Of a DNA stretch of 47,795 nt, positions 34,497 through 40,421 are shown one piece after another. Numbering within the stretch: position 1 is the first letter of the stretch; each line of letters starts with the position of its first letter. The notes beneath the pieces were generated by a model. That model saw only the letters and a list, made by a program, of their open reading frames with translations, searched no databases and was not told the DNA's origin. Position numbers and translations under genes: made by a program. The stretch covers positions 1-47,795 of the IMG/VR virus record IMGVR_UViG_3300038393_000411. One strand, 5' to 3'. This DNA comes from a virus. Taxonomy: Duplodnaviria; Caudoviricetes.

Positions 34497-34780
34497 TCGT
34501 CAAACGATTGAGGCACCGCGGCCGGCGTCTTCCTGACCGCGAAATCTCCGCCAGCACAGGCGTGCGGGGCGAGCTCACCGTCGCCATCTGCGGCCACGGG
34601 CCCGAGGCGACGCTGTTCGCGCCGAATGACCAGCAACGGAAGCCGCTGATACCCGAGCTTCAAAATGCTCAGCTGGTCACGATGACGACTACCGGCATGC
34701 TTCTCTATGGCACGGAGAAATCCCAGGACGGCGCCGAGTACGTGCAGGAGTGGTCGGTTCGGCTCGCCAGCATCGATTAG
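34487..34780 (+). CDS. Hypothetical, probably SOS-regulated protein
   Basis: ATG lies inside the LexA box; LIP.L..A.L..G.E..QEW pattern. Confidence 0.7.
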   Translation: MYSIVKRLRHRGRRLPDREISASTGVRGELTVAICGHGPEATLFAPNDQQRKPLIPELQNAQLVTMTTTGMLLYGTEKSQDGAEYVQEWSVRLASID

Positions 34781-36033
34781 GCGGCCATAGCGGACCCCTT
34801 CAGCGGAACGACATTCCACGGCAGACCGTTTTCGCACGCGACCAGGAACGACGCCCAAAGCTCAAGCGCCTGCCGCCGCTCCGGGATTTCGTCGCGGACG
34901 TCGTAGACCGCCTCCATGCCCTTGAGGGTGTGGTTCAGCGCGATCTCGGAGATTTCGCGCGACACCCCGAGATTGCGCATGTGGCCCTTGGCGGTACTGC
35001 GCGTGTCGTGCGGCGTGAACTTGCGTGTCTGCAGGGCGCCGCGCTCGAACGCTCGATACAGGGCGGCCGAAAGGGTCGACCGTCCCACATGTTGGCCGGC
35101 CCGGCGATCGTCCCTGGCAGGCAATACCCATGGCGAACCCCCGGCGAGACGCTCCAGTTCCTTGAACCATCCCGCGACGGTCGGGGTGATCGGCACCAGA
35201 AAGCCGACCCGCGTTTTTACGGACTCGTCGGGTACGAACCAGGTGCCGCGCTCGAAATCGATATGCTCCCACCGCGCCTTGACCAGTTCGATCGTGCGGA
35301 CGCAAGTCGCCAGCATGATTTTCAGGGCCAGTCCGTTTTCGTCGCCGATATCACCAACGGACGAGAGTAGCTTGCGCAGTTCATCCTCCTGCAGCATGAC
35401 GCGCTTGCGGATGGGCGGGCGAGGCCCCATCAAGGCTGCCAGTTTGATGCCGGCCGCTGGGCTGACCTTGATCAGTTGCCGGCCAATGGCGTGTTCGAAA
35501 AGCTGGGAAGTGGTACCCAAAATCCGCTTCTGCATGACCCAGCCGCGGCCGGAGCGCTCAAGCATCGTGACGATGTCCTCGGCGATGACCGACTGAACCT
35601 CGAGAGGTCCGAGCTTTGGCAGGATCACCTTTTCCAAATCCCACTTCTTCGCCTTGACTGTCCCTGGCGCCAGACTGCCGGCGTCTAGCACCTTTGCCGT
35701 CAAATCCTCGGCCAGGCGCCGCACGGTCCAGGTGCCGCGCAGCTTCATCCGCTCGGCGCGCTTTTCCGCTGCCGGATCCTGCCCCTTGTCGACGGCGACG
35801 CGGTGTTCGCTCGCCATCTTGCGCGCCGCGGCGAGGCTGATATCGGGGTAGTTCCCGATGGTCAACTCACGCGGCCGGCCTTCGCGCATGTAGCGCAGGA
35901 TCCACGACGCTGTCCCGGCCCGGGACAGGGTGAACGTCAGGCCGGCACCATCTGATTTCGCGACGGGCTCGCCGGCCGCTATCCAGCGGCGTATCTGCAT
36001 GTCACTGAGGAGGTTCGTTCCGCGCTTGGCCAT
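34777..36033 (-). CDS. int: Tyrosine integrase with N-terminal arm-binding domain (P4-like)
   Basis: DG.GL..W..RY..IG.YP.ISLA.AR; catalytic R (TCVR), HDTR, LNH and Y. Confidence 0.96.
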   Translation of the reverse strand: MAKRGTNLLSDMQIRRWIAAGEPVAKSDGAGLTFTLSRAGTASWILRYMREGRPRELTIGNYPDISLAAARKMASEHRVAVDKGQDPAAEKRAERMKLRGTWTVRRLAEDLTAKVLDAGSLAPGTVKAKKWDLEKVILPKLGPLEVQSVIAEDIVTMLERSGRGWVMQKRILGTTSQLFEHAIGRQLIKVSPAAGIKLAALMGPRPPIRKRVMLQEDELRKLLSSVGDIGDENGLALKIMLATCVRTIELVKARWEHIDFERGTWFVPDESVKTRVGFLVPITPTVAGWFKELERLAGGSPWVLPARDDRRAGQHVGRSTLSAALYRAFERGALQTRKFTPHDTRSTAKGHMRNLGVSREISEIALNHTLKGMEAVYDVRDEIPERRQALELWASFLVACENGLPWNVVPLKGSAMAA

Positions 36034-36042
36034 GGCGTTCCC

Positions 36043-36339
36043 AAATTTGTAGTTAGACGCGGTCGTCGTAGCTAGCTACAAATCTAGCTACAAATTTTGA
36101 CCGCGTCAGCGAGGTCCAACAAGATACGAAAGATACATCAAGTTGGCCATCTATAGGGGGAAACTGCCGGGTGACGTACACAGAAGAAATTATAAGAGTG
36201 ACCAATCGCGATTGAAGGTGGCAATCTTCATATTTTTCCTAAAACTCACTGTCCATGCGGGTTTCGAGGCGGCAGACTCACCCGAAAACTGCGCTAGCTA
36301 CAAATCTAGCTACAAATTGCGGATGAGTCAGAAAGATAC
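36043..36339. other. attP region with arm-type repeats
   Basis: Exact 26-bp repeat GCTAGCTACAAATCTAGCTACAAATT at 36071-36096 and 36293-36318; an inverted partial copy at 36043-36056; three AAGATAC copies. Confidence 0.85.
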
Positions 36340-36361
36340 AACAATGCGCAATAATAGCCGA

Positions 36362-36541
36362 TCAACTTTTCAGCTTGCCGGCGGCAATCGCGCGGTCGAT
36401 ACTCTCTGCAGTGATCCGCGTCGCGCGCTGGCCAATCCGCACCAAGTCCAGTTCGCCGCGGGCGGCCATGCGGTAGATCGTGGCGCGGCACACGTCCAGG
36501 CGTTTCATTGCGGTGCTGACTCGATAAAGCAGTTTTTCCAT
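36362..36541 (-). CDS. Excisionase / AlpA-like HTH protein
   Basis: MEKLLYRV..A.KRLDVCRATIYRM..RGEL..VRIG.RATRIT..SI; AAGGAG RBS; adjacent to attP. Confidence 0.85.
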   Translation of the reverse strand: MEKLLYRVSTAMKRLDVCRATIYRMAARGELDLVRIGQRATRITAESIDRAIAAGKLKS

Positions 36542-38755: not shown

Positions 38756-39663
38756 GCCTTCTTCTCCTGTTCAGCGCTTGCGGCGATAGCTGCGCGGAAC
38801 ACGAATTCAAGACCTAGAAGCATGTCAGCAGAGGTGGCGCCTGGCTTGGACAAGTCGCGCATAAGCAGTCGCCCGAATGGGTCATGCCATACTCTTTCGA
38901 GGTCTGACGCAACAACTTGACCTTTGAAGCGAATCGTGCCAGTAAGGTTATCTTGTGTCATCGTTAGTTTCGTTTCTGCTGCATCCCGCTCGGTATCCTC
39001 GCCAGCATTCGATGCATGGGCTGCGCGCTCCAGCTTGAACGCGATTTCGCCCAGGATCGTGCCGGCGATGGCTGCAATATCCTCGTGTGACATACTCGGC
39101 ATGGTCACGCCGGCCAGCCGGGCAACGCGAGACAGGCGCTTCGATAGGAACTCGGCCTCCGACAGCGGCAAATTCCGGTCAGGTGTCGTCGCGCTTGCCG
39201 TGGTGGCCTTGTCGTAGGGGTAGACGAGAGGCAGCATCTTCGGCTGGACGCTTGCCGTGGTGGCCGCAGGTTGGCACATAGCAGCGGTAGGTTGGCAGGT
39301 AGGCGATGGAGGTTGGCAGACAGCCGCTCCTGCCTGCTGTGCGGCCGGTGCGAGGTCATAGAGTGGGAAGAACTCGGTGCAGCCTTCGCCAGCGCGGCGC
39401 TTGGCTTCTTCCTTCGTGAACGCCACGTCGCCACGGCCATCAAGATCGGTCGCCAGCCATGCGGCAGGCGCTTCGGGCGCGGCTTGGAGATCATGGCGGG
39501 CCGCGTCCCACTGCTTGCGCAGCGAATCCATCGTAGCGACGACATCGCCGGTCAGCGCCTCGCCGGGGCGCTGCGCCAGGTTGAACATTACGTTTGCCAT
39601 CTGGCCGCCGATGTTTAGCAGCTTGTCCAGGTCTACACCTGTGGTGTTGGTCTTGTCTGTCAT
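38752..39663 (-). CDS. Hypothetical mosaic early protein
   Basis: ATGA coupling, GGAG RBS, internal short repeats. Confidence 0.7.
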   Translation of the reverse strand: MTDKTNTTGVDLDKLLNIGGQMANVMFNLAQRPGEALTGDVVATMDSLRKQWDAARHDLQAAPEAPAAWLATDLDGRGDVAFTKEEAKRRAGEGCTEFFPLYDLAPAAQQAGAAVCQPPSPTCQPTAAMCQPAATTASVQPKMLPLVYPYDKATTASATTPDRNLPLSEAEFLSKRLSRVARLAGVTMPSMSHEDIAAIAGTILGEIAFKLERAAHASNAGEDTERDAAETKLTMTQDNLTGTIRFKGQVVASDLERVWHDPFGRLLMRDLSKPGATSADMLLGLEFVFRAAIAASAEQEKKA

Positions 39664-40421
39664 GCTGCCTGCTCCATGAAAAGTGGGTTCTGAATGGGTG
39701 CGGCCTTGCGATCCCAAAAGATGGCTGACTGCTGCGACTCGATGCGCTCGCGCATGATTGCGGCCCGCGCTTCCTTCGTTGGTGGGGTATAGGTTCCCTT
39801 CCACGCGCTGTCTATGCCGATGTTCTGTGCGATATTCGTGCTGTCTGCCGATGAGAACGGGAAGCGCGTGAACACGTCCGGATTGAGCATCCGCAGGCCG
39901 TGAACCTTAGCGGCTGGACGTCCGGAGCGATCACAAATTACGTCCATCGCCTCAGCCATACGAACCCACCATGTCGGCGTGCCGATCTGAGCGAATTCGC
40001 CAGAGCTACCGAGGCAAACGCGTGGCCACTGGCTCACGAGCCGGTCCAGGCGATCTAGCGACTCGTGCAGGTGCCGCACGGGCGCGCCGATGTGCGGCGC
40101 TGTCAGCCGCCAGGGCCATTCGGCCAGCAGTGCGTCGTTCGCTGCCTCGTCGCCGTCGATAACATCCGGAATCACAGCGAAGTCGAACGGCGGATAGCGA
40201 TGCAGTTCCGCGACCCACTCGTAGAATCTCGACCAATCCGTGATCGGCTTGCCACTCTTCCATGCCGAGAAGGCGCCGTTGTCCACTGCAAACGACTGCG
40301 CCGCTTCCAGCGCGATCGTCAACTGGTCAGGATGCGCGAACGACACGAAGGCGTGACCGCCGCTCACCGCGCGCACAGCTGCTGTCGCGGGCGTGATAGG
40401 AAGTCCGTGATAATGGATCAC
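39660..40421 (-). CDS. DpdA/TGT-like (guanine transglycosylase fold) protein
   Basis: DNGAFS, IPDVI, KVHGL and SADST motifs parallel the TGT-family DSG, D, H and D motifs. Confidence 0.65.
   Translation of the reverse strand: MIHYHGLPITPATAAVRAVSGGHAFVSFAHPDQLTIALEAAQSFAVDNGAFSAWKSGKPITDWSRFYEWVAELHRYPPFDFAVIPDVIDGDEAANDALLAEWPWRLTAPHIGAPVRHLHESLDRLDRLVSQWPRVCLGSSGEFAQIGTPTWWVRMAEAMDVICDRSGRPAAKVHGLRMLNPDVFTRFPFSSADSTNIAQNIGIDSAWKGTYTPPTKEARAAIMRERIESQQSAIFWDRKAAPIQNPLFMEQAA

Follow-up and report, generated by a model that had tools for sequence, protein, structure and literature searches.

A phage attachment site that reads as the start of an exonuclease III-type gene, and related elements integrated into the first codons of such genes

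Why does the DNA between the excisionase and the integrase of a phage read, on one strand, as the beginning of a bacterial repair gene? The question is posed by the window, the whole stretch of DNA analysed here, which is the entire IMG/VR virus record IMGVR_UViG_3300038393_000411 (47,795 bases, classed linear, 84% complete). The record is a virus contig alone (47.8 kb), and it therefore contains no host DNA for a search within its own genome. The first-pass annotation read the minus strand between the arm repeats as an RBS-like AGGA, five bases, ATG, MKIATFN, six further codons and a stop, and this reading is correct. It took the stretch for the replacement 5' end of an xth-like host gene.

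Attachment site of the window phage

Temperate phage in attP form, the window has the order xis-attP-int. Terminase, portal, major head, tape measure and RecE/RecT-like genes are encoded. The tyrosine integrase is of the arm-binding type, 418 aa in length (34777..36033, minus strand), with matches to Arm-DNA-bind_3 (PF13356), Phage_int_M (PF22022) and Phage_integrase (PF00589). Its sequence indicates the arm-binding, core-binding and catalytic domains of lambda/P4-like tyrosine integrases. Residues R246, K273, H342, R345, H368 and Y377 are invariant in the clade alignment and are presumably the catalytic R-K-H-R-H-Y residues. The excisionase-like HTH_17 ORF is 59 aa in length (36362..36541, minus strand; PF12728, E 7e-9). 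A further minus-strand ORF (39660-40421) matches phrog_887 (queuine tRNA-ribosyltransferase-like, E 2e-72).

The excisionase-like ORF and the integrase are separated by 330 bases, with tandem arm-type repeats flanking on both sides. The int-side (P') repeats (36043..36097) consist of a tandem pair at 36071-36096 and an inverted third copy at 36043-36057; they recur before int in relatives. The xis-side (P) tandem repeats (36293..36318) lie 65 nt before the ATG, and the distance from repeats to start codon is 56-65 nt in 30 P arms. A 14-bp direct repeat is present once per arm (36128-36141 and 36331-36344) and is a candidate site for Xis or an accessory factor.

Between the arms, on the minus strand, a Shine-Dalgarno-like AGGA (36237..36240) stands 5 nt before the ATG (36231). 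The ATG opens a mini-ORF of 13 codons (36190..36231), M-K-I-A-T-F-N-R-D-W-S-L-L followed by TAA (36192-36190), which exists in the attP state only. A role as a functional peptide was rejected, since the tail varies between close relatives.

Inverted half-sites around a short overlap are the usual core layout of tyrosine integrases. The attP of the window appears to conform to it, with two inverted half-sites, an overlap in the 6-8-bp class, arm repeats and an adjacent excisionase. The left core half-site (36222..36231, minus strand) is formed by the replacement ATG and codons 2-3 (M-K-I). It is followed by the 7-bp overlap CCACCTT (36215..36221, minus strand), the probable crossover, equivalent to bases 11-17 of the host gene, and by the right core half-site (36205..36214, minus strand), a predicted Int core-binding site complementary to the left one at 7/10 positions. 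The best-scoring inverted repeat of the att region in the window has a 7-bp spacer and begins at the ATG. Across 10 attP sites, an imperfect inverted repeat (6-9/10) pairs the ten bases beginning at the ATG with the ten that follow the overlap, and the repeat that starts at the start codon is best or joint best in six of them. Because the inverted repeat in attP sites starts at the ATG, codons 1-3 are probably the left Int core site. The six codons after MKIATFN are present as annotated; they take no part in replacement and cover the right core half-site together with the first part of the int-side arm.

A chance resemblance of seven codons to the N-terminus of exonuclease III (ExoIII) has next to no probability. 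The motif is short, but a degenerate 21-nt start pattern matches the window exactly once, where 0.07 matches would be expected even at 3 mismatches, and a looser pattern is present in 28 of the 37 stretches directly upstream of close integrases against 2/318 window tiles and 4/388 tiles downstream of related integrases, which served as controls. The paired junctions with intact genes described below also oppose it, and their attR side already refutes it.

The attP form is real DNA, since single contigs span the intact site in three of the four DNA runs examined (X1, X3 and X9; X1 and X3 are possibly the source of the record and hence maybe not independent of the window). The stretch is present in 11 DNA sequencing runs, with no RNA run among those listed. 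In the four runs examined, no loose ends were found at the core such as attL or attR of the window phage itself would give.

Host junctions of related elements

Integrase relatives were drawn from viral contigs and species-representative genomes. A stub of the host gene was scored where the pattern M/V/L-K/R-I/L/F/V-x-T/S-W/F/C occurs some 200 bp upstream of int and soon runs into a stop codon or into unrelated sequence. It is found in 15 of the 17 chromosomal relatives with upstream DNA at 58% identity or more; of the other two, one has a stub visible by eye and the locus of the second is truncated at a contig end. The stub is absent from all 16 relatives at 23-32% identity. An even sample of 401 family genomes contains 12 with an integrase match: the stub is present with all five full-length integrases at 56% or more and with none of six at 45-48%, and is absent from a broken fragment at 66%. 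A profile search of viral contigs gave 80 loci, of which the 43 with enough upstream DNA were tested together with one plasmid locus. Among these 44 further loci, ten of which repeat earlier records, the start is found in 28/37 at 53% identity or more and in 1/7 below. No new clade member was found in a class-wide sample of 401 genomes, where two other matches are without a stub by eye.

The clade (support 97/97; 27 of the 39 tree rows) holds most stub-bearing integrases; one, L013, falls outside it. The order of target switches is only suggested, because the tree has open forks inside the clade. The nearest full-length chromosomal integrase (84% identity) lies on a contig binned as Xanthobacteraceae. 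The flanks of close integrases, whose inspection had been proposed as a check, mostly contain an ExoIII-type start about 200 bp before int and a gene in frame at the far end.

The far junction, attR, was sought via ExoIII families, window DNA and the arm pattern in genomes with a related integrase. Both junctions were recovered in 22 of the 27 genomes or records that have a related integrase and a host-side end; these pairs were chosen for both ends being found and are not independent, eight of the 22 being Aquabacterium-like kin. In the other five (G001, G002, G011, G148 and G435) attR was not found, G002 having just an 11-nt remnant of the leader. On the attL side, upstream of int, the first codons of the host gene persist as a dead stub. 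The attR side consists of tandem arm repeats, an element leader of 56-65 nt, the element start and then the gene in frame. At gene bases 11-17, attL matches attR exactly in each of the 22 pairs; mismatches between the two ends number 2-7 in the ten bases right of this overlap and 0-5 in the ten on its left. In eight pairs the two ends share a contig and a strand, with about 7 to 56 kb between them. The distinct attR sequences number 20, of which 19 open into an ORF of 254-281 aa and one is cut by a contig end. The host stub starts with GTG or TTG while the element supplies ATG in 5/22 pairs, with one reverse case. A scan of viral and metagenome contigs for the P-arm pattern returned attP forms only, plus two unrelated matches.

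Two features are thus seen in relatives: a crossover inside the 5' coding region that leaves the native 5' piece as a stub, and an in-frame start, supplied by the element, with which the ORF regains its full length. The pairs strongly support the first proposal, insertion within the opening codons of an ExoIII gene with a start borne by the element; the extent of the replacement is smaller than proposed, comprising the element leader and codons 1-3, and the remaining codons are not replaced. The predicted geometry also holds in relatives, with the host upstream region staying before int and the gene lying behind xis and the P arm.

The stretch in the window is an intact attP core. The integrase very probably recombines this core, inside the 7-bp overlap, with the start of an ExoIII paralog, and the gene would be left whole behind a phage leader and start. 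Strand exchange would take place in codons 4-6, within the overlap. Host promoter, host RBS and host codons 1-6 would stay at attL, reading into the P' arm and int. At attR, xis, the P arm, the element leader and the ATG with codons 2 and 3 would be placed before the rest of the gene. The replacement codons would double as the left core-binding half-site, so that one 10-bp stretch would serve recombination and translation; the overlap would set which paralog and which allele are usable. A promoter near the xis stop may keep the gene expressed in the lysogen. The first core strand of ExoIII, with its conserved Asn, is presumably made by the N-terminus, which for that reason would have to be replaced.

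It is improbable that the replacement is nothing but a left core half-site resembling attB, with restoration of the gene incidental and the gene maybe silent in lysogens. The coincidence of codons 1-3 with the left arm of the core inverted repeat in the 10 attP sites (6-9/10) would fit such a reading, as would the weak or missing Shine-Dalgarno motifs of several arms and an Ideonella element (below) whose ATG, joined to the middle of a CheY-like gene, gives just a truncated protein. Against it, an in-frame start is kept in 30/30 P arms (selected for this) and the right half-site varies freely; all 19 complete restored ORFs are open; and in the five pairs named above, with one reverse case, an element ATG takes the place of a host GTG or TTG. 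By our own motif list, Shine-Dalgarno motifs are absent from 5/30 P arms. The RBS-like motif of the first reading is present in the window, as AGGA, and is not a conserved feature of the clade.

Host gene of the window phage and target range of the clade

Gene restoration at a second ExoIII paralog is the reading taken further here. Canonical xth is the commonest target within the clade; the subgroup of the window uses this second paralog, which is 41-42% identical to canonical xth and present in 107 of 110 Massilia genomes. The best 30 paralog loci were fetched, and 29 have a readable start. Unoccupied paralogs begin ATG CG- (MR[IV]ATFN) in 27/27, mostly with GGAG or GAGA before the start, where the window has AGGA. 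Occupied paralogs, recognised by arm repeats, begin ATG AAG ATT G (MKIATFN) in 2/2, as does the window. The window overlap CCACCTT is found in 14 of the 27 unoccupied Massilia paralogs and in both occupied ones; other close phages have CCACTTT (8/27 hosts) or CCACATT (seen in G048).

Among informative cases, Massilia G017 comes nearest to the window, with an int fragment 86% identical over 113 aa. The element is degraded (135-aa int), and its two ends lie on separate contigs. The start at attR is equal to the first 19 bases of that of the window and leads into an ExoIII of 264 aa (TIGR00195, E 4e-77). The attL stub reads MRVATFN, and its neighbour on the upstream side is a gene that also precedes the unoccupied paralog of G014 (78% identity between the two copies); host upstream motifs remain at this junction. 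The paralogs of G017 and G014 score above the TIGR00195/TIGR00633 cut-off, that is, as exodeoxyribonuclease III. The best match of the paralog to a solved structure is 2jc4 (E 2e-61), aligned from residue 1.

Unoccupied Massilia paralogs (L166-L195) have common motifs 20-90 bp upstream, with CGTGCG about 20 nt before TTACAA. One group has a GTAGT-N3-ACTAC palindrome upstream. The shared motifs may represent a dedicated promoter or operator.

Target and host genus are read from relatives, because no junction of the window phage itself was seen. On the overlap and the start codons, the likely target is the second ExoIII paralog rather than canonical xth, and Massilia or a close relative is the probable host. 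The proposed target is accordingly retained as an ExoIII gene and given up as canonical xth. Integration at canonical xth, or at an unrelated gene with the same core, instead of the MR[IV]ATFN paralog is still less probable than the half-site reading above. It would agree with the rank of canonical xth as commonest target and with a relative, 81% identical, in a cdaR-like gene; the canonical xth overlaps seen, however, end in TG (Thr/Ser-Trp), whereas CCACCTT of the window encodes Thr-Phe and occurs in the paralogs at the frequency given above (14/27 unoccupied and both occupied).

Within the clade the target moves among xth, the ExoIII paralog and two non-ExoIII EEP genes. Two Massilia elements lie in the latter (PF03372, below ExoIII cut-offs), each with its own fitting start. 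The EEP target paralogs align just over their first 40-100 residues. A satellite-like island of 15 kb (L162; G031:C1:2785300-2800600) has the same integrase type and a non-ExoIII EEP gene as target; helicase and capsid-like ORFs were recognised in it by eye.

Other genes are entered as well. In two loci with an 81%-identical integrase (L006 and L221), the insertion is in a cdaR-like gene some 20 codons from its start (L006:215-290), at an internal MRIIPFN stretch that resembles an EEP start; the cdaR-like identity is from a Pfam E of 0.03 on a stub of 25 residues, and the L006 record is without its far end. In Ideonella dechloratans NZ_CP088082.1 (~562-645 kb; L308, L295:2560-4290) a clade element of 83 kb lies inside a CheY-like gene, and its ATG is joined to the middle of that gene, giving a receiver truncated at its N-terminus. 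Beside int, this element has a reverse transcriptase and avd (diversity-generating retroelement). A 70%-identical phage (L008/L229) has both arms intact and a core about 200 bp before int without an EEP-like start. A 55%-identical integrase (L271:1220-1300) follows a gene start with two CTG-N10-CAG motifs upstream. We take these motifs to be LexA-box-like, and the insertion may be in an SOS gene.

Sister integrases (39-48% identity) use the 3' end of rng. The orientation of int to rng varies (L155-L160, L275, L277, L291), as either the full gene or an inverted QYD[VI][IV]L fragment precedes int. L014 follows an apparent 3' end of rnr, judged by eye. The cdaR-like, CheY-like, non-ExoIII EEP and rng targets fit a choice of site by DNA sequence and not by repair function.

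Expression, known systems and significance

The exchange of promoters follows from the geometry of insertion; its regulatory effect is putative. Scans of the window arms for a sigma-70 consensus and for terminators found nothing. TATTAT (36351..36356, minus strand), just past the xis stop, is a putative -10 hexamer and is tentatively regarded as a candidate replacement promoter. In 10 Massilia-type arms the arm pair is preceded, at a distance of 43-46 nt, by a TA-N-N-AT hexamer; a further 11 P arms have different -10-like hexamers at other places, and 9/30 have none. Strict TANNAT is present in 11/30 P arms against a shuffle mean of 3.0 and maximum of 10, the pattern having been chosen post hoc and the rows being related. 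Across 110 Massilia genomes the -10 pattern has 7 matches, two of them (G066 and G078) unrelated to att sites. The paralog of G104 (L305, C54 ~930-1030) keeps the xis tail and the hexamer and has lost the arm repeats; that of G077 (L185, C237:23500-23700) keeps the P arm and an element-derived 5' end. No clade integrase was found in G077 or G104, both of which may be incomplete assemblies, and their 5' ends are possible domesticated phage promoters. In L024 the region upstream of the stub resembles an eroded P arm.

An evolved switch, with the repair gene under element control, int under the host promoter, and repair or excision readiness tied to the state of integration, much as in active lysogeny or regulated gene integrity, is considered unlikely. 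The geometry fits it: host upstream motifs at attL are co-directional with int, and the window arms gave no terminator. The hexamer at a fixed place past the xis stop in the 10 Massilia-type arms and the element-derived paralog 5' ends of G077 and G104, where no clade integrase was found, point the same way, as does a dusA island that lowers dusA expression according to bioRxiv 10.1101/2021.06.18.448947. Against this, the hexamer pattern was chosen after looking and has no matching -35, G077 and G104 may be incomplete, and the clade also targets non-ExoIII EEP, cdaR-like and CheY-like genes, its sister clade the 3' end of rng. By analogy with prfC and dusA, the replacement start most likely serves chiefly to keep the interrupted gene functional; a change in expression level is treated as a side effect until shown otherwise.

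Restoration of this kind is known, because replacement of a 5' end has already been described at prfC (SXT) and dusA. That an attP directed at a gene carries replacement sequence is stated as a rule in PMC10111431. SXT/R391 ICEs replace the 5' end of prfC by the same strategy; here, in contrast, the target family is ExoIII/EEP, just three codons are replaced, and the carriers are phages and islands of about 7 to 180 kb. The dusA-associated integrases (Farrugia 2015, PMC4482086; IMEVchUSA3) also occur in both prophages and islands, integrate at the 5' end, supply a replacement first beta strand and promoter, and exchange about 35 residues at one target gene. The present system differs in that the core half-site includes the start codon itself and in that the target shifts from one EEP paralog to another. 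In regulated gene integrity, or active lysogeny, the target is inactivated until excision, whereas here the ORF is intact when integrated, as seen in relatives. The rng (RNase G) 3'-end sister integrases have the same arm-type repeats and integrase family; since they use a 3' end, they have no start codon or promoter to replace.

The integrase of Burkholderia phage BcepC6B (gp25) is 57% identical to that of the window and falls in the same supported clade. The BcepC6B attP has an RBS-like motif and MKIAT, in the same layout, with an overlap of the xth type. The phn-island integrase IntCs14 is reported to be 60% identical to the BcepC6B integrase (PMC3318190); that paper notes the adjacency of related integrases to rng and states that a preferred integration site could not be identified. 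No description of xth/EEP as an integration target was found in the literature searched; TIGER tables and Mageeney et al. 2020, outside the search, may list it. Neither xth nor exodeoxyribonuclease is mentioned in PMC13626063, PMC12884075 (text and supplements), PMC10111431 or PMC4482086 (text). A new target family, with switching between paralogs, for a known restoration strategy is well supported.

A wider reading is doubtful and is put forward as speculation: that an undescribed integrase clade of beta- and some gamma-proteobacteria reads the N-terminal motif conserved throughout the EEP nuclease superfamily as an att site, hops between paralogs via seven bases and uses promoter exchange as a switch, with repair genes controlled by the phage and int by the promoter of the repair gene, and that decayed elements leave host repair genes under phage-derived promoters for good.

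The start of xth and of other EEP genes is a recurrent target of this integrase clade, which is carried by Burkholderiales and Luteimonas phages and islands. This predicts the attachment site of BcepC6B, and probably that of the phenanthrene-degradation phn island. A route of specificity change is indicated, in which the half-sites keep to a protein motif that the paralogs have in common and the 7-bp overlap changes. One threonine codon of the host gene exists in wobble alleles that have counterparts in different phages, and this would limit where each phage can lysogenise. In such genomes the 5' ends of xth genes consist of element DNA, a point relevant to promoter annotation. If expression does shift on integration, lysogeny would directly touch DNA repair.
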